Below the pieces are notes generated by a model. The model was given only the letters and a program-made list of their open reading frames with translations, made no database searches and was not told the origin of the DNA. A stretch of 43,214 nt of DNA from Candidatus Adlerbacteria bacterium RIFCSPHIGHO2_12_FULL_53_18. Its GTDB lineage: Bacteria > Patescibacteriota > Minisyncoccia > Phycocordibacterales > SBAW01. The stretch lies in assembly GCA_001775475.1 (NCBI GenBank), contig MEWW01000017.1, forward strand, positions 1 to 43,214. The letters run 5' to 3'. This document shows, in pieces, positions 1,899 through 41,552 of the stretch. A program made the position numbers and the translations under genes. Every line of letters starts with the position of its first letter. Positions within the stretch are counted from its first letter, which is position 1.

Positions 1899-2350
1899 GT
1901 AACAAACAATTTACGGCAGGAGTGGCGGTGGTAGCGGCGGTCGCGGTCGTACTTCTCTTTTTTGTGTTTGGCAATCCGTTTGCAGCGGTCGAGCAAGGGC
2001 TCACGGCAAATACGATAGGCAGCGTGGGGGGCCAGCTCCTCGTACAGGACGAGGTTGTTGGTACCGGAGCGGAGGCCTCGATAGGCAGCATCGTCTCAGT
2101 GCACTACACCGGCATGTTTCAGGACGGTGCGGTGTTTGACAGCTCGGAGGGCGGTCAGCCGTTCCAGTTTGTGATAGGGGCGGGGCAGGTGATACCGGGG
2201 TGGGACCAGGGCCTGCAGGGTATGAGGGTCGGCGGTACGCGGCTCCTTGTTATCCCGCCCGACCTCGCTTACGGTGCACAAGGCTACGGACCGATACCGC
2301 CAAACGCAACACTCGTATTTGAAGTTGAGTTGATTGCTATTGAAGAGTAA
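1895..2350 (+). CDS. FKBP-type peptidyl-prolyl cis-trans isomerase
   Basis: VHYTG, FDSS, VIPGWDQG, LAYG and IPPNATLVFEVEL motifs; N-terminal anchor; ATGA overlap with the upstream gene. Confidence 0.95.
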   Translation: MSNKQFTAGVAVVAAVAVVLLFFVFGNPFAAVEQGLTANTIGSVGGQLLVQDEVVGTGAEASIGSIVSVHYTGMFQDGAVFDSSEGGQPFQFVIGAGQVIPGWDQGLQGMRVGGTRLLVIPPDLAYGAQGYGPIPPNATLVFEVELIAIEE

Positions 2351-2369
2351 CGAAGGCACACTTCGTCCG

Positions 2370-3623
2370 ATGCGTCCGATTTCGTTTGAGATAACAAAAA
2401 GTGCCGGCCCGCTCTCTAGGGCCGGTGTTTTGTACACTCCGCATGGGGCTATCGAGACGCCTGCGTTTGTGGCCGTTGCCACCAAAGCCAACGTCAAAGG
2501 AGTACCTTCAACCGCGTTTCAGGCGCTTGGCGTACAAGGGATAATTGCCAACACCTACCACCTCTACCTCTCCGGGCTCGAGGCTATTGAAAAAGCCGGC
2601 GGGGTGGGGAAGTTTATGGCTTTTAGCGGCCCCACCATGACCGACTCGGGGGGATTCCAGGTATTTTCGCTGGGAGTGGGGTTTGGCAAAAAAATATCAA
2701 AGTTCCTTCCGGAGGAGAACCCTTTTCTCCGGAGAGATGAACGGCACTCCTCCGAAAAGGGTTCTCCTCCTCCAGCAGTTTGGGATGAGGATTTGGCAAC
2801 AAGCCATGGCAAGCTCGCAATTATAGATGAAGAAGGAGTTTCCTTTACCTCTCACCTCGATGGCACCCTGCATCGCTTTACCCCCGAGCGCTCAGTTGAA
2901 ATACAACACCAGCTTGGCGCCGACATTATTTTTGCCTTCGACGAGTGCACCGCCCCCGATGCCGAGTACGACTACCAAAAAGAGGCGATGGACCGGACGC
3001 ACCGGTGGGCGGAGCGCTCTCTCAAAGCGCACCGACAGAACGTACAGAAAAACAATGAACAAGGAATCTACGGCATCGTACAAGGAGGGCGGTATGCCGA
3101 CTTGCGTGTGCAAAGTGCCAAAGAAATTGCGGGGATGGACTTTGACGGCTTTGGCATTGGTGGTTCTTTCAGCAAACAGGATATTTTAGGGATTTTAGAT
3201 AAGGTCAACAACGAACTACCAAAAGAAAAGCCGCGGCATTTGCTTGGCATCGGCGAGCCCGAAGATATTTTTATCGGCGTTGCCGCAGGCTGTGATACGT
3301 TTGACTGTGTCTTGCCAACTCGCAACGGCCGCACGGGCGGCATCTATACGCGCGGGGGTAAGATTCAAATTCCAAACGCCGAGTACAGAGAAGACTTTTT
3401 GCCGCTCGACAAAGGCTGCGGGTGTCCAGTATGCCAGACGTACACCCGCGCCTACGTTCACCACCTTTTTCGCACCAAAGAGTTGCTCGGGCCCGTGCTT
3501 GCCAGCCAGCACAACCTCTACTTTTTGACCAACCTCGCCAAACAGATTCGTAATGCGCTCCTTGACGGAACATTCGAAAAGTTTCGGGATGATTTTTTGG
3601 CAAAGTATCGGTTGACGAAGTAG
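2370..3623 (+). CDS. tgt: Queuine tRNA-ribosyltransferase
   Basis: TPHG..ETP, NTYHL, TDSGGFQ, GIVQGG, FDCVLPTRNGR and CxCxxC motifs. Start set at ATG 2370. Confidence 0.95.
   Translation: MRPISFEITKSAGPLSRAGVLYTPHGAIETPAFVAVATKANVKGVPSTAFQALGVQGIIANTYHLYLSGLEAIEKAGGVGKFMAFSGPTMTDSGGFQVFSLGVGFGKKISKFLPEENPFLRRDERHSSEKGSPPPAVWDEDLATSHGKLAIIDEEGVSFTSHLDGTLHRFTPERSVEIQHQLGADIIFAFDECTAPDAEYDYQKEAMDRTHRWAERSLKAHRQNVQKNNEQGIYGIVQGGRYADLRVQSAKEIAGMDFDGFGIGGSFSKQDILGILDKVNNELPKEKPRHLLGIGEPEDIFIGVAAGCDTFDCVLPTRNGRTGGIYTRGGKIQIPNAEYREDFLPLDKGCGCPVCQTYTRAYVHHLFRTKELLGPVLASQHNLYFLTNLAKQIRNALLDGTFEKFRDDFLAKYRLTK
2711..2770. repeat. In-frame palindromic element inside tgt
   Basis: Perfect 17-bp inverted repeat GGAGGAGAACCCTTTTC (2711-2727) / GAAAAGGGTTCTCCTCC (2754-2770), inner stem GGAG/CTCC around loop AGATGAACGGCA, TCC on both flanks. 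Confidence 0.85.
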
Positions 3624-3639
3624 GGTATGAGGCTATAGT
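3612..3639 (+). promoter_or_regulatory. Sigma70-type promoter of the intergenic RNA
   Basis: TTGACG (3612-3617), 16 nt, TATAGT (3634-3639). Confidence 0.6.
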
Positions 3640-3644
3640 GAAGA

Positions 3645-3799
3645 AGTTGGCTGATCTTTGATTCGGTTTTTCCTCCCTCCGGGTTGGAGGTTAGCCGACT
3701 GTTCCCCTCTGGAAGGTGTTTGCCGTTCAGGTTGTTGACGCGGCAAGAACTGCCGGGTTTCACTTCGCGCGTTGCGATTTGGACCCGGCAACTTTTTTT
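3645..3799 (+). ncRNA. Candidate structured small RNA, family unknown
   Basis: 22-bp stem with 8 G-U pairs (3645-3666/3679-3700), branched domain 3701-3750, terminator stem 3751-3760/3781-3790 plus T7. Confidence 0.65.
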
Positions 3800-3819
3800 A
3801 AATCTGCTAAAGTAACCGG

Positions 3820-5844
3820 GTGGCCGATTTTAAAATCAAATCAAAGTACAAGCCCGCCGGCGACCAACCGAAGGCTATTTCAGCTTTAGTTAAGGGTCTT
3901 AAGGCGGGGGAGCGCCACCAAACCCTGCTCGGCGTCACCGGCTCCGGTAAGACCTTTACCGTTGCCAATGTTATAGAGGCGCTGCAGCGGCCGACCCTGG
4001 TTATCGCCCACAACAAAACGCTTGCGGCGCAGCTGGCGCAGGAGTATCGCGAGTTTTTCCCCGATGCGGCGGTGCACTACTTTGTCTCCTACTACGACTA
4101 CTACCAACCAGAAGCCTATATTCCGCACAGCGATACCTATGTTGAAAAAGAAGCGCAGATAAACGAAGAAATTGAGCGCCTGCGCCATGCCTCTACCCAA
4201 GCGCTCTTAACGCGTAAGGATGTGATTGTAGTCGCGTCGGTCTCGTGCATCTACGGCCTCGGCAACCCGGCAGAGTATGCTAAGTACCTGGTTGAGCTTA
4301 AGGTAGGGCAGAAGAAAAACCGCGCCGAGCTTATCCGCGAGCTTATCCATTTGTATTTTACGCGCACGACTGCCGATCTAACGCCGGGCGAGTTTAGAGC
4401 GCTCGGCAACTCGGTCGAAATACAGCCCGCCGGCGAGCGTGTGATCTACCGGATTGAGTTTGAAGGAGAAACAATTGCGAAAATCAGGATTATAGATGCG
4501 ATTACGCGGGTGGAGCGGGAGGAGAAGCAGTCGCTCACCCTATTCCCCGGCAAACACTACGTGACGCCGGAAGACGAAACGAAGCGCGCGATGGGGGAGA
4601 TTAAGCACGAACTTAAAGAGCAGTTGCTGAAGTTTGAACGGCAGGGCAAGGTGCTGGAGGCCGAGCGGCTCAAGCGTCGCACCAACCACGACCTGGCACT
4701 TATACGCGAGCTTGGCTACTGCAACGGGATAGAAAACTACTCAAGACACTTCGACGGTAGAGCGCCCGGCGAGCCCGCGTATTCGCTTTTAGACTACTTC
4801 CCGAAAGACTTTTTGACTATCATAGACGAGAGCCACGTCACCGTGCCGCAGATAGGCGGTATGTATGCTGGCGACCGCGCGCGCAAGGAAAATCTGATTG
4901 AGTACGGCTTCCGCCTGCCTTCTGCGGTCGACAATCGGCCGCTCATGTTCGAAGAGTTTGAAAAAAAAGTCGGGCAGGTTATATACACTTCTGCGACTCC
5001 GGGGCCTTATGAACGCGAAAAATCGGGCAAGCATATCGTCGAGCAGATTATCCGCCCGACCGGCCTGGTTGACCCACAAATAGATGTACGGCCTGTCATA
5101 GGCAAAGACGGCGTGAAAAGCCAGGTCGAAGACGTACTTGAGGAAGCGACAAGTACCATAGACCGTGGCGCGCGAGTGCTTATTACGACCCTCACCAAAA
5201 AAATGGCCGAAGACTTATCAGAGTTTCTTAAAGACCGGGGCTACAAAGCAGCCTATCTCCACAGCGACATTGAGACCCTGGAGCGGATTACAACTTTAAC
5301 CGACCTGCGTAAGGGTACGTACGACGTGTTGGTGGGCGTTAACCTCCTGCGAGAGGGGCTGGACTTGCCGGAGGTGGAGCTGGTGGCGATTTTAGACGCC
5401 GACAAAGAGGGCTTTTTGCGCAGCGAGGTGTCCCTGATACAAACTATTGGCCGCGCGGCGCGCAACGTGGCGGGGCGAGTCATCCTTTATGCCGACCAGG
5501 AAACGCCCTCGCTTAAAAAGGCGGTCGGGGAGACCAACCGACGCCGCGCGGTGCAGGTTGCCTACAACAAAGAGCACGGCATCACGCCACAAACTATAAA
5601 GAAGAACATCAAAGACATTACCGAAGAGCTCCGGAGCGAACACGGCAAGGCGGTGCAAGAGATGATTACGATTGAGCAGAAGCTCTACAAAGAAAACCCG
5701 CGCAAATTCTTGAGCGAAAAACGCACCCAGATGGCCGAGGCGGTCAAAAACCTCGACTTCGAAACTGCAGCTTTAATCCGTGATGAAATTTATGCTCTGA
5801 CGGGAAGGGAAAAGAAGAAAACCGCTAGTAGACGCGCTAAATAA
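3820..5844 (+). CDS. uvrB: Excinuclease ABC subunit B
   Basis: GDQP, GVTGSGKT, YYDYYQPEAY, DESH, QTIGRAARN and C-terminal UVR motif. Confidence 0.98.
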   Translation: MADFKIKSKYKPAGDQPKAISALVKGLKAGERHQTLLGVTGSGKTFTVANVIEALQRPTLVIAHNKTLAAQLAQEYREFFPDAAVHYFVSYYDYYQPEAYIPHSDTYVEKEAQINEEIERLRHASTQALLTRKDVIVVASVSCIYGLGNPAEYAKYLVELKVGQKKNRAELIRELIHLYFTRTTADLTPGEFRALGNSVEIQPAGERVIYRIEFEGETIAKIRIIDAITRVEREEKQSLTLFPGKHYVTPEDETKRAMGEIKHELKEQLLKFERQGKVLEAERLKRRTNHDLALIRELGYCNGIENYSRHFDGRAPGEPAYSLLDYFPKDFLTIIDESHVTVPQIGGMYAGDRARKENLIEYGFRLPSAVDNRPLMFEEFEKKVGQVIYTSATPGPYEREKSGKHIVEQIIRPTGLVDPQIDVRPVIGKDGVKSQVEDVLEEATSTIDRGARVLITTLTKKMAEDLSEFLKDRGYKAAYLHSDIETLERITTLTDLRKGTYDVLVGVNLLREGLDLPEVELVAILDADKEGFLRSEVSLIQTIGRAARNVAGRVILYADQETPSLKKAVGETNRRRAVQVAYNKEHGITPQTIKKNIKDITEELRSEHGKAVQEMITIEQKLYKENPRKFLSEKRTQMAEAVKNLDFETAALIRDEIYALTGREKKKTASRRAK

Positions 5845-9355: not shown

Positions 9356-10678
9356 ATGACCCTCGAGCAATTCAAGAAAATAGCCAAAAAAATGCCTGAC
9401 ACGCCGGGGGTGTATTTCTTTTTGGATAAGGCTAAAAAAGTGCTCTACATCGGTAAGGCAACCAGCCTGCGCGACCGCGTGCGCAGCTACTTTGCTAAGG
9501 ATCTTATCGCTACCCGCGGGTCGCTTATCACCTCCATGATAGAAAAGGCACACTCAGTTGACTGGCGCGAAGTGGACTCGGTATTGGAGGCGCTTATTTT
9601 GGAGGCAAACCTAATAAAAAATTACAAACCGAAGCACAATACCGACCTCAAAGACGACAAAAGCTGGAACTACGTCGTTATTACGAAGGAAGACTTTCCG
9701 CGGGTGCTTCTTGTGCGGGGGAAGGAGCTAGCGGAGCAGAGGCTCCGCAAAGGTCCTCCGCTTAGGGGAGATAAACGGCACCCCTTCGCGAAGGACTTTG
9801 CTTCGCCGTCATATACAACGTTACATACTTTTGGCCCCTTTCCTCATGGCCTACAGCTCAGAGAGGCGATGAAGCTTATTCGCAAGATATTTCCATATCG
9901 CGATACCTGCATCCCTTGCGAAGTTTTAACGAAGCAGGGCAAACCTTGCAAACCATGTTTCAATGTTCACCTCGGCCTCTGCCCCGGTGTCTGCTCGGGT
10001 GAGATTTCAAAAACAGAGTACCGTAAAATAATCCGCAATATTTCACTCCTTTTTCAGGGCAAAAAGAAGACACTGGTAGTGGTGCTCAAGAGGGAAATGA
10101 AACAGGCGGCTAAAAGTGAACGGTTTGAGGAGGCGGCGCGGCTGCGCAAGCAGATTTTTGCGCTCGAGCATATCCGCGACATTTCGCTTATTAAAGAGGA
10201 GTATCGGCGCCCTCAGATAGAACTCGGGGTAAACCGAATTGAGGCCTACGACATCGCGCACCTGCGCGGCTCGAGCAACGTGGGCGTGATGACAGTGGTG
10301 GAGAACGGTGAGGCGCAAAAAAATGAGTACCGTAAATTCAGAATCCGCACCGCGAATGCAGGCGACGACGTAGGAGCTCTGCGCGAGGTGTTGACCCGCC
10401 GGCTCGGGCACGACGAGTGGCCTATGCCGCGCATTATTGTGGTAGACGGCGCTGCGGCGCAGATAAACGCTGCAGAGCGTGTGCTGAAAAGTTATGGAGT
10501 GGCAATACCAGTAGTTGGGGTGGTAAAAGACGAAAAGCACCGCCCGCGCGACATCCGCGGCAACCGAGATTTAATTAAAGGTCGCGAGCGCGACATCCTT
10601 CTTGCCAACGCCGAAGCACACCGGTTTGCAATAAGCTATCATCGCAAGAGCTCCCGTGCGCAATTTAATCCTCAATAA
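9356..10678 (+). CDS. uvrC: Excinuclease ABC subunit C (no C-terminal HhH2)
   Basis: GIY-YIG (PGVYFF...YIGKA..LRDRV.SY), Cys cluster, UVR domain, RNase H-like EAYDI/VDG motifs. Start taken at 9356 because TGGTACAAT overlaps ATG 9338. Confidence 0.9.
   Translation: MTLEQFKKIAKKMPDTPGVYFFLDKAKKVLYIGKATSLRDRVRSYFAKDLIATRGSLITSMIEKAHSVDWREVDSVLEALILEANLIKNYKPKHNTDLKDDKSWNYVVITKEDFPRVLLVRGKELAEQRLRKGPPLRGDKRHPFAKDFASPSYTTLHTFGPFPHGLQLREAMKLIRKIFPYRDTCIPCEVLTKQGKPCKPCFNVHLGLCPGVCSGEISKTEYRKIIRNISLLFQGKKKTLVVVLKREMKQAAKSERFEEAARLRKQIFALEHIRDISLIKEEYRRPQIELGVNRIEAYDIAHLRGSSNVGVMTVVENGEAQKNEYRKFRIRTANAGDDVGALREVLTRRLGHDEWPMPRIIVVDGAAAQINAAERVLKSYGVAIPVVGVVKDEKHRPRDIRGNRDLIKGRERDILLANAEAHRFAISYHRKSSRAQFNPQ
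9731..9801. repeat. In-frame palindromic element inside uvrC
   Basis: Hairpin GCGGAGC-AGAG-GCTCCGC, then GCAAAGGTCCT...AGGGG-AGATAAACGGCA-CCCCT...AGGACTTTGC. The loop matches the tgt element at 11/12. Confidence 0.75.
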
Positions 10679-12319: not shown

Positions 12320-12395
12320 GGGCCCGTAGCTTAGTTGGTAGAGCGCCTCATTTGCAATGAGGAGGTCACCGGTTCGAATCCGGTCGGGTCCACCA
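12320..12395 (+). tRNA. tRNA-Ala(TGC), CCA encoded
   Basis: Acceptor GGGCCCG/CGGGTCC with G3-U70; anticodon arm CCTCA-TTTGCAA-TGAGG; GTTCGAATC. Confidence 0.97.
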
Positions 12396-12396
12396 C

Positions 12397-12469
12397 GCAC
12401 TCTTAGCTCAGTTGGTAGAGCACACCCTTCACACGGGTGGGGTCGCAGGTTCGAGTCCTGCAGAGTGCA
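12397..12469 (+). tRNA. tRNA-Val(CAC)
   Basis: Acceptor GCACTCT/AGAGTGC; anticodon arm CACCC-TTCACAC-GGGTG. Confidence 0.95.
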
Positions 12470-12561
12470 CAAGTCGTGTGGGGCACGACTTGTGAGCCGG
12501 AGGTGCGACGGCACCGAGGCGGGGTCGCGGAAATTTTCAGCAGAAAATTATCTGTGACCCT
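12468..12561. repeat. Multi-hairpin element directly downstream of tRNA-Val
   Basis: CACAAGTCGTG/CACGACTTGTG, GGTGC/GCACC and GGGTCGCGGA-AATTTTC/GAAAATT-A-TCTGTGACCC stems. Confidence 0.6.
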
Positions 12562-12582
12562 GTGCAGAATTATTGACAAAAT

Positions 12583-12656
12583 CGGGGTGTGGTATAACGG
12601 TATTACGTACGATTCGGGTTCGTAAAATCCGAGTTCAATTCTCGGCACCCCGACCA
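12583..12656 (+). tRNA. tRNA-Pro(CGG), CCA encoded
   Basis: Acceptor CGGGGTG/CACCCCG; anticodon arm TACGA-TTCGGGT-TCGTA. Confidence 0.93.
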
Positions 12657-12683
12657 GGTTTTTGATATAGTATTTGGCGATTA

Positions 12684-12754
12684 GGGCCTGTAGTAAAGTG
12701 GTATTACGCGGCATTCGCATTGCCGAGTCGCGAGTTCGATTCTCGCCAGGTCCA
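12684..12754 (+). tRNA. tRNA-Ala(CGC)
   Basis: Acceptor GGGCCTG/CAGGTCC with G3-U70; anticodon arm CGGCA-TTCGCAT-TGCCG. Confidence 0.93.
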
Positions 12755-41479: not shown

Positions 41480-41552
41480 GGGCCTGTAGCTCACTTGGTA
41501 GAGCGCTTCCATGGCATGGAAGAGGCAAGGGGTTCGAATCCCCTCAGGTCCA
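41480..41552 (+). tRNA. tRNA-Ala(GGC)
   Basis: Acceptor GGGCCTG/CAGGTCC; anticodon arm CTTCC-ATGGCAT-GGAAG. Confidence 0.96.

Follow-up and report, generated by a model that had tools for sequence, protein, structure and literature searches.

A candidate AbcR-type anti-Shine–Dalgarno small RNA gene, probably acquired from Alphaproteobacteria, between tgt and uvrB of a Candidatus Adlerbacteria genome

We analysed a stretch of 43,214 nucleotides (nt) from Candidatus Adlerbacteria bacterium RIFCSPHIGHO2_12_FULL_53_18 (contig MEWW01000017.1, positions 1 to 43,214), referred to below as the window, and in particular the spacer between its tgt and uvrB genes. Positions 3612–3799 of the plus strand are a free-standing gene for a small RNA (sRNA) of about 154 nt, which is predicted to start at about 3646 and is presumably expressed. 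The RNA is probably a diverged AbcR-type anti-Shine–Dalgarno (anti-SD) sRNA of the alpha-r15/alpha-r8 clan (CL00108) that was acquired from Alphaproteobacteria. The kind of RNA, a rearranged member of the AbcR-type clan, is already known; what is unexpected is where it was found.

The window RNA and the alpha-r15 family

The family closest to the window RNA was alpha-r15 (ar15; RF02345), which includes AbcR1 and AbcR2 of the Rhizobiales, and the alignments suggest that the two are homologous over the whole length of the RNA. A blastn search of plasmids returned five weak records, two of which were Rhizobiaceae loci, both bona fide ar15 (114.3 and 113.7 bits). In a local alignment, positions 3650–3797 paired with positions 2–110 of the Shinella ar15 (the one of 114.3 bits) with 83/102 identical and one insertion of about 31 nt; this corresponded to a z-score of 8.4 against mononucleotide shuffles and 5.7 against neighbour-preserving swaps, and 0/300 shuffles reached the score in either. 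When the two ar15 sequences were in reverse searched by blastn against the whole 540-kb genome, the sRNA locus came first (E 8e-5 and 2.8e-4), as it did among 10,744 stretches of the genome compared by the Smith–Waterman algorithm (56.5 versus 46.5 for the next). Alignment to the ar15 model paired the start of the stem, aligned the loop and matched the linker GUUCCCCUCUGGA at 13/13 positions. The equivalent of the second AbcR stem-loop (SL2) is imperfect and followed by the 31-nt insertion, and the terminator is present and aligned with that of ar15. When transcribed bodies were compared, the window RNA had a z of 8.0 with Rhizobiaceae ar15 and of only 0.3–3.4 with what its genus-mates carry at the same site, and was thus nearer to the former. 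The RNA fails the curated ar15 model because its first stem-loop (SL1) is zipped into a longer perfect helix and because a hairpin is inserted. An earlier interpretation of this DNA, made without database searches (the sequence-only reading), had called the sRNA novel; this did not stand, since its syntenic relatives score 50–63 bits against RF00519 (cut-off 41) and the window RNA itself aligns with bona fide ar15 along its full length.

The likeness includes the two sites through which AbcR RNAs are reported to act. According to PMC8844928, AbcR1/2 work via two 8-nt anti-SD motifs, CUCCUCCC in the 5' hairpin's loop (aSD1) and UUCCCCUC between SL1 and SL2 (aSD2), which are backed by mutational and compensatory evidence in S. 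meliloti. In the window RNA, loop positions 3671–3677 read UUCCUCCC, that is 7/8 bases of aSD1, and aSD2 is matched exactly at 3702–3709, directly 3' of SL1. The wider loop segment 3669–3678 is the invariant 10-mer UUUCCUCCCU of the alpha-R8 RNAs and is unpaired with a probability of 0.999. The aSD2 copy is fully unpaired with a probability of 0.10; freeing it costs 1.4 kcal/mol, and 4 of its bases are paired in the minimum-energy fold. An unpaired CU motif is also seen in every relative at the tgt–uvrB site, which bears out the suggestion, first made from the letters of the window, that the CU-rich loop is an anti-SD seed.

The features of the locus are the following.

2334–3623, plus strand: tgt (queuine tRNA-ribosyltransferase), the upstream neighbour, from the list of open reading frames (ORFs), with a Pfam TGT match at 3.1e-131
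3612–3639, plus strand: sRNA promoter found by promoter scan, with a -35 box TTGACG at 3612–3617, a 16-nt spacer and a -10 box TATAGT at 3634–3639
3645–3700, plus strand: SL1, an uninterrupted 22-bp helix with 8 G-U pairs, corresponding to the ar15/AbcR 5' hairpin by fold and ar15 alignments, with its first base close to the predicted transcription start (about 3646)
3667–3678, plus strand: the 12-nt SL1 loop UUUUUCCUCCCU, unpaired probability 0.999
3701–3713, plus strand: the linker, identical to the ar15 consensus in the model alignment
3715–3751, plus strand: middle hairpin, by fold and alignment, including the stretch of about 31 nt (about 3730–3760) without an ar15 counterpart
3752–3799, plus strand: intrinsic terminator, by sequence and fold, an interrupted GC-rich hairpin at 3752–3789 and then U7 at 3793–3799, aligning with the ar15 terminator
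3805–3813, plus strand: extended -10 of uvrB, TGcTAAAGT, read by eye, 3' of the sRNA terminator
3820–5844, plus strand: uvrB, the downstream neighbour, with a GTG start at 3820 and Pfam matches to UvrB, UvrB_inter and Helicase_C

With alpha-r15/AbcR the window RNA thus shares an anti-SD seed in the loop, the exact UUCCCCUC after the 5' hairpin within a 13-nt stretch identical to the consensus, and an intrinsic terminator. It differs in its helix, which is of about 12 bp with internal loops in AbcR and a perfect 22 bp here, in the 31-nt insertion and imperfect SL2, and in its promoter; AbcR itself silences ABC-transporter and metabolic mRNAs, acting at the ribosome-binding site. With alpha-r8 (MmgR, SuhB, SisA-D; RF00519), a family of the same clan, it shares the 10-mer and a Rho-independent terminator, and the elements of three genus-mates at the same tgt–uvrB site exceed the RF00519 cut-off. 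The hallmarks of alpha-R8 given in PMC12559287 are a Rho-independent terminator, the internal single-stranded 10-mer and a weak hairpin just 5' of it; unlike that linker, the 10-mer of the window RNA forms the loop of the 22-bp hairpin. The host, too, differs from those of alpha-r15 and alpha-r8, as it lies outside Alphaproteobacteria and has no detectable Hfq. In alpha-r14/NfeR1 (RF02344), as here, anti-SD motifs are shown in hairpin loops, but PMC8844928 describes three identical loop motifs, and the window RNA has one in the loop and one in the linker. As a candidate family, ar14 was rejected, with 0/80 genus genomes over the cut-off.

The resemblance to ar15 could in principle have arisen by convergence, in an independently evolved CU-rich sRNA, novel as the sequence-only reading had proposed, that is like ar15 only in the seeds any anti-SD RNA needs. 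Other phyla have unrelated sRNAs in which CU-rich seeds recur, the window RNA scores under the cut-off of every Rfam family, and its promoter is unlike that of the alphaproteobacterial copies. However, the similarity to ar15 spans the stem, linker, second hairpin and terminator, with the identity and shuffle results given above, the 13-nt linker is identical to the consensus, the locus is the best ar15 match of its genome (E 8e-5), and relatives at the same site exceed the RF00519 cut-off. We therefore consider convergence quite improbable.

Fold and gene layout

Almost all of what had been read from the letters alone was recovered by computation. The TTGACG-16-TATAGT promoter lies at 3612–3639 and agrees with the consensus at 10/12 positions. 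The uninterrupted 22-bp helix with 8 G-U pairs is formed by 3645–3666 pairing with 3679–3700, and its dependence on the plus strand was confirmed: the plus strand folds with -78.2 kcal/mol (z -4.87, 0/200 shuffles folding as well), versus a z of -2.50 for the minus strand (5/200 shuffles equally good). The terminator with U7 and the separate downstream -10 of uvrB were likewise found. Only the proposed branched domain was recovered no more than in part, this region being a single long hairpin (3715–3751) in the minimum-energy fold, without a branch. The same fold contains a small, weak 4-bp hairpin at 3702–3714, between SL1 and the middle hairpin.

Helices as long as SL1 are rare in this genome. 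About 8 hairpins with at least 18 uninterrupted pairs occur in the entire 540 kb, and 2 with at least 22; SL1 alone of these two needs G-U pairs, the other being a perfect DNA palindrome. Three similar hairpins with 18 uninterrupted pairs and a loop of 8–11 nt, at positions 10048–10092 (+) of contig C6, 14424–14470 (-) of C14 and 56322–56365 (+) of C16, are a small repeat family.

The tgt–uvrB spacer is 196 nt long. The -35 box of the sRNA overlaps the last codons and the stop codon of tgt, and the uvrB start lies 20 nt 3' of the sRNA element. Promoter-like sites numbered 2 in 1.5 kb, versus 0.8 ± 1.0 in shuffles. Because the promoter is followed by hairpins, the CU motif and a terminator, and only then by a separate -10 for uvrB, the layout is that of an independent gene; the sequence-only reading had taken it for one, and the promoter, conserved in relatives, and the terminator agree with this. 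The extended -10 of uvrB ends 6 nt before the GTG, so that uvrB seems to be nearly leaderless.

Other identities of the region were rejected. A repeat or mobile element does not fit, as the sRNA region occurs once in the window genome. A coding reading was dismissed, as the 4 small ORFs over the region had no Pfam match at E up to 0.1. SRP RNA, tmRNA, RNase P, 6S RNA and riboswitches were likewise set aside, since the only Rfam matches in the window were 5 tRNAs, all elsewhere; the sequence-only reading, too, had seen no SRP, tmRNA, RNase P or riboswitch. Four of these tRNA genes are clustered at 12320–12754, and the fifth is at 41480–41552.

Related elements in the genus

Blastn with the spacer over 41 genomes gave a match in the window's own genome (G000; other G numbers denote relatives in the genus) and none in the 40 relatives; thus, relatives were sought through synteny. 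The tgt gene was found in 58/61 genus genomes, and 30 tgt loci were examined. Of these, 26 showed tgt as well as uvrB, and in a 27th, that of G023, the start of uvrB lies at the contig end. The gap between the two genes was about 0–40 nt in 15 of the 26 loci and about 95–200 nt in 7, and 4 loci (L007, L016, L018, L024) carried a gene-sized insert of 0.7–1.2 kb, which showed no family motif in the proper arrangement.

Five genomes carry a unit of promoter, hairpin, CU motif and terminator at this site, namely G000, G058, G020, G073 and G023, four of them within the 7 mid-sized gaps. In each carrier the unit lies on the same strand; its parts are a promoter, one or two hairpins, UUCCUCCCU in an unpaired state and a terminator that is GC-rich and has a U-run. 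By eye, a -10-like element for uvrB could be read 3' of the terminator in 5/5. The promoter TTGAY-N17-TATAGTGAA is common to G000, G058, G020 and G073, and is unlike the promoters of the alphaproteobacterial copies. A scan for it matched 8/80 genus genomes, 4 of the matches being at the tgt–uvrB site, and gave one match in the control. The 13-nt stretch over the -10 and start, TATAGTGAAGAAG, recurs whole at this site in G073, and G020 and G058 each have it with a single change. The genus-mates' RNAs at this site are mutually related (z 4.7–14). In a quick, single-gene tgt tree, the carriers form two small groups, each with one non-carrier. At three further loci, L034 (G024), L038 (G052) and L039 (G091), TTGAC-N17-TATAGTGAA stands 5' of another kind of conserved element, in which a short hairpin is flanked by an A-run and a U-run and CU-rich stretches come next; it may be another small RNA or a leader.

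Eight genus loci were scored against Rfam, and six exceeded the RF00519 cut-off (suhB/MmgR, alpha-r8; 41 bits).

G023, tgt–uvrB site: 62.8 bits
G071, positions 66011–66088 of contig C3 (L045), 5' of the 16S rRNA gene: 62.1 bits
G010, a copy elsewhere than tgt–uvrB: 57.8 bits
G073, tgt–uvrB site: 57.5 bits
G058, tgt–uvrB site: 50.4 bits
G013, positions 534–608 of contig C37 (L047), 5' of the 16S rRNA gene: 46.7 bits

The sub-threshold matches in G095 (37 bits), G076 (34.6), G006 (30.3) and G007 (29.5) look like further diverged copies. No genome exceeded the cut-off among 151 of the order or 151 of the phylum, which fits local acquisition. The tgt–uvrB element of G020 (L010) had no Rfam match; in a narrower search it gave 9.9 bits to RF00519, and its best weak match was alpha-r14/NfeR1 (18.1 bits). 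Rfam and covariation analysis, to which the sequence-only reading had looked as checks, gave divided answers: the syntenic relatives matched strongly but the window RNA itself reached only 15.4 bits (ar15, cut-off 40), and RNAalifold on 10 alpha-r8-type relatives supported the terminator (8 pairs, 7 with compensatory changes) and nothing else. That two families are found at one site in the genus is explained by the composition of alpha-r15, in which, as del Val et al. (PMC3346310) describe it, an anti-SD 5' hairpin is added to a suhB-like 3' module.

The copies of G071 and G013 share the strand of the 16S rRNA gene, lie 375–475 nt 5' of it and mark a second recurrent site of the family in the genus; since they adjoin this gene, their contigs belong to the organism itself and the copies are no stray fragments. 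The 3' end of the 16S rRNA is missing from the G000 assembly, and the window genome may have a second copy 5' of its 16S gene.

Beyond the genus, a search with the 15-mer around the motif, with one genome per species, returned at least 120 stretches, mostly from Alphaproteobacteria among the matches listed. When 14 of these loci were compared with Rfam, RF00519 was found above its cut-off in 9/9 alphaproteobacterial ones (14 matches) and in 0/5 others. The relatives in the genus match exactly the definition of alpha-R8 given in PMC12559287. A sequence-only model, R1, recovered 5/5 training loci and also G071, G010 and G013, its weaker matches being coding regions. The alpha-r8 copies of the genus reach a similarity of up to 0.86 to alphaproteobacterial copies, and of 0.65–0.81 to each other, and the G071 terminator nearly equals that of particular alphaproteobacterial copies.

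Three single loci were also noted. In G020 (contig C6, 142871–142944; L055), a terminator hairpin with UUCCUCCC in its loop lies just 3' of a coding region; it had no Rfam match and may be a 3'-end-derived relative of the family. In G041 (contig C2, 152731–152812; L253), a hairpin loop with UUCCCCUCU is followed by a terminator; its ar15 score, 24.2 bits, is under the cut-off, and it may represent a further sRNA with a CU seed. A pattern scan of metagenomes gave 40 loci, 36 of which came from one unrelated sequence, with many contigs labelled human gut; at a metagenome contig end (L214, 11563–11712) the conserved promoter, CU motif, terminator and following -10 were all present, and this is likely a further family member, the sole such locus of the scan.

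The position of the element, directly after tgt and 20 nt 5' of uvrB, invites the thought that it acts in cis, as a terminator or insulator for tgt and a leader or attenuator tuning uvrB, with the RNA as a by-product; as the two genes are about 0–40 nt apart in 15/26 loci, an inserted terminator must alter their coupling. Against this, the element comes with a promoter of its own and a strong terminator, past which uvrB has a separate -10, family members stand at unrelated sites too, G071 and G013 having theirs 5' of the 16S rRNA gene, and the alphaproteobacterial homologs act in trans according to PMC8844928. A role in cis is thus very improbable.

Host, mechanism and origin

The window genome is 0.54 Mb in size and 89% complete; congeners have 0.5–1.3 Mb, and among the genomes listed those of the order have 0.5–0.9 Mb and those of the phylum 0.5–1.3 Mb. 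Small genomes throughout a phylum suggest an ultrasmall bacterium of the Patescibacteria type. Its DNA is present in groundwater and soil metagenome runs. In one run, X2, a contig fuses position 3541 to 3821, omitting 279 nt, and a relative without the sRNA gene seems to share the sample.

Searches for RNA chaperones gave 0 matches to the Hfq Pfam family in G000 and one among 80 genus genomes, and no match to ProQ or CsrA in G000; RNase III is present. The sole Hfq match (G059, contig C46, 129–314; 102 bits) is at a contig start and may be assembly contamination. This bears on the idea that the RNA is a decoy or sponge, which titrates a purine-rich RNA or a CU-binding protein and does not repress mRNAs. 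A precedent is given in PMC12559287, where Caulobacter alpha-R8 sRNAs pair via the 10-mer with the G/A-rich loop of the sRNA CrfA, but no Hfq, ProQ or CsrA was detected here and no partner was found, although none was searched for, and we give this possibility hardly any weight.

As an AbcR-type regulator, the RNA would work as follows. Transcription would start at about 3646 from the sigma-70-type promoter and end at 3799 at the intrinsic terminator. The RNA would then offer two CU-rich anti-SD seeds, UUUCCUCCCU in the loop of the stable 5' hairpin and UUCCCCUC directly after the hairpin, which, in a few mRNAs, may pair with purine-rich ribosome-binding sites and so keep translation from initiating. 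Pairing with ribosome-binding sites has been shown genetically for AbcR1/2 (PMC8844928), and also for SuhB on thnR in a bioRxiv paper. Since no Hfq gene was found, the mechanism would have to work without Hfq. The C-rich sRNAs of Firmicutes, RsaE/RoxS and LhrC, pair with SD regions without Hfq through unpaired C-rich motifs in loops or linkers; they serve here as working analogues only, and no sequence relation to them is claimed.

Candidate targets were sought in the window genome. Duplex-energy prediction over 598 crude ORFs was discarded, as it was dominated by chance GC-rich pairings. Exact 8-nt complements at first-choice starts precede a formyltransferase (contig C8, 9364), adenylosuccinate lyase (C10, 40749) and a 126-aa protein without a Pfam match (C16, 31809), and the 7-nt complements include one before a DUF5680-like protein. 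These genes are examples, not predictions, and no regulon is proposed.

A number of results weigh against an acquired AbcR-type regulator. The window RNA is below every Rfam cut-off: ar15, its best family, gave 15.4 bits versus a cut-off of 40 (E 0.42 in a 166-nt search), RF00519 did not match it even at E up to 10 and had 0 matches in G000, and ar15 was over the cut-off in 0/80 genus genomes. The plasmid blastn matches, with E 2–5 in a 7.3-Gb set, are not significant alone. The transcribed body showed no detectable similarity to the RNAs that genus-mates have at this site (z 0.3–3.4); orthology with them has to be argued from position and promoter alone. The 22-bp helix was seen in no other genome, and the metagenome scan gave no second RNA with such a helix to compare for covariation. 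In four DNA runs the helix showed no variants and the spacer no difference at all, so that, as population data, these runs are neutral on the structure. The unit is missing from the close relatives G042 and G043, and RF00519 exceeds its cut-off in 6/80 genus genomes, a patchy distribution that also fits a dispensable element. GGAGG stands upstream of 57/598 crude ORF starts (9.5%) versus a background of 7.5%, in agreement with the view that such sites mark few genes, and SD use is thus barely above background. The exact-complement scans gave a handful of 8-nt matches without statistics, and the best candidate target, the formyltransferase, had no ortholog in the 10 relatives searched. Finally, the known family members depend on Hfq, according to PMC8844928. 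As SD use is weak and uvrB looks leaderless, any regulon would be small.

Part of this would suit a transferred passenger or relic, that is, an AbcR-type gene from Alphaproteobacteria that is transcribed or decaying without a regulatory role: the patchy distribution with absence from G042 and G043, the failure to find Hfq, the weak SD use, the lack of a supported target, and the 31-nt insertion relative to ar15 with the imperfect SL2 equivalent. We nevertheless regard it as unlikely, since four species keep a near-consensus promoter of the recipient type at the site, where it spans the tgt stop codon, both seeds are intact with the 10-mer displayed unpaired, and the -10-like element of uvrB after the terminator in 5/5 carriers suggests a settled arrangement.

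With regard to origin, the lineage most likely obtained the gene of the AbcR-type RNA from Alphaproteobacteria by transfer, and the gene would now be under a recipient-type promoter. The combination of an ar15-like body, the genus-mates' promoter and the pattern of alpha-r8 similarity would be compatible with two or more transfers, or with a body that was exchanged while the site stayed the same. The number of transfers is a lead and no result, because the sequences are short and the alphaproteobacterial sample was chosen by motif. Alpha-r8-type copies are found at two kinds of site and an alpha-r15-type body at tgt–uvrB, as if uptake had been multiple. One could go further and suppose that the genus, attached to alphaproteobacterial hosts, took up their sRNA genes repeatedly, and that the RNA mimics host AbcR, enters the host cell and acts on host mRNAs (e.g., nutrient-uptake mRNAs) besides its own; we find this scarcely credible.

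Alpha-r8 and alpha-r15 sRNAs are described in PMC12559287 and PMC3346310 as alphaproteobacterial, Hfq-associated regulators. In the literature we found no report linking suhB/alpha-r8 to the candidate phyla radiation, none linking AbcR/alpha-r15 to Patescibacteria (by title, among the papers listed), and, judged by title and abstract, no study of Patescibacteria sRNAs. If our assignment is true, curated covariance-model cut-offs miss rearranged members of such families, and synteny, promoter and pairwise alignment found here what cmscan missed. The window RNA would be a first candidate for a riboregulator acting in trans in a bacterium that is ultrasmall, host-dependent and without detectable Hfq, ProQ or CsrA, and its gene a concrete case of a base-pairing sRNA gene that crossed phyla and was re-wired to a local promoter. 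It would also give a testable hint as to which organisms are hosts of the genus or gave it genes. Taken together, these results suggest that AbcR-type regulators can move between very distant bacterial groups.

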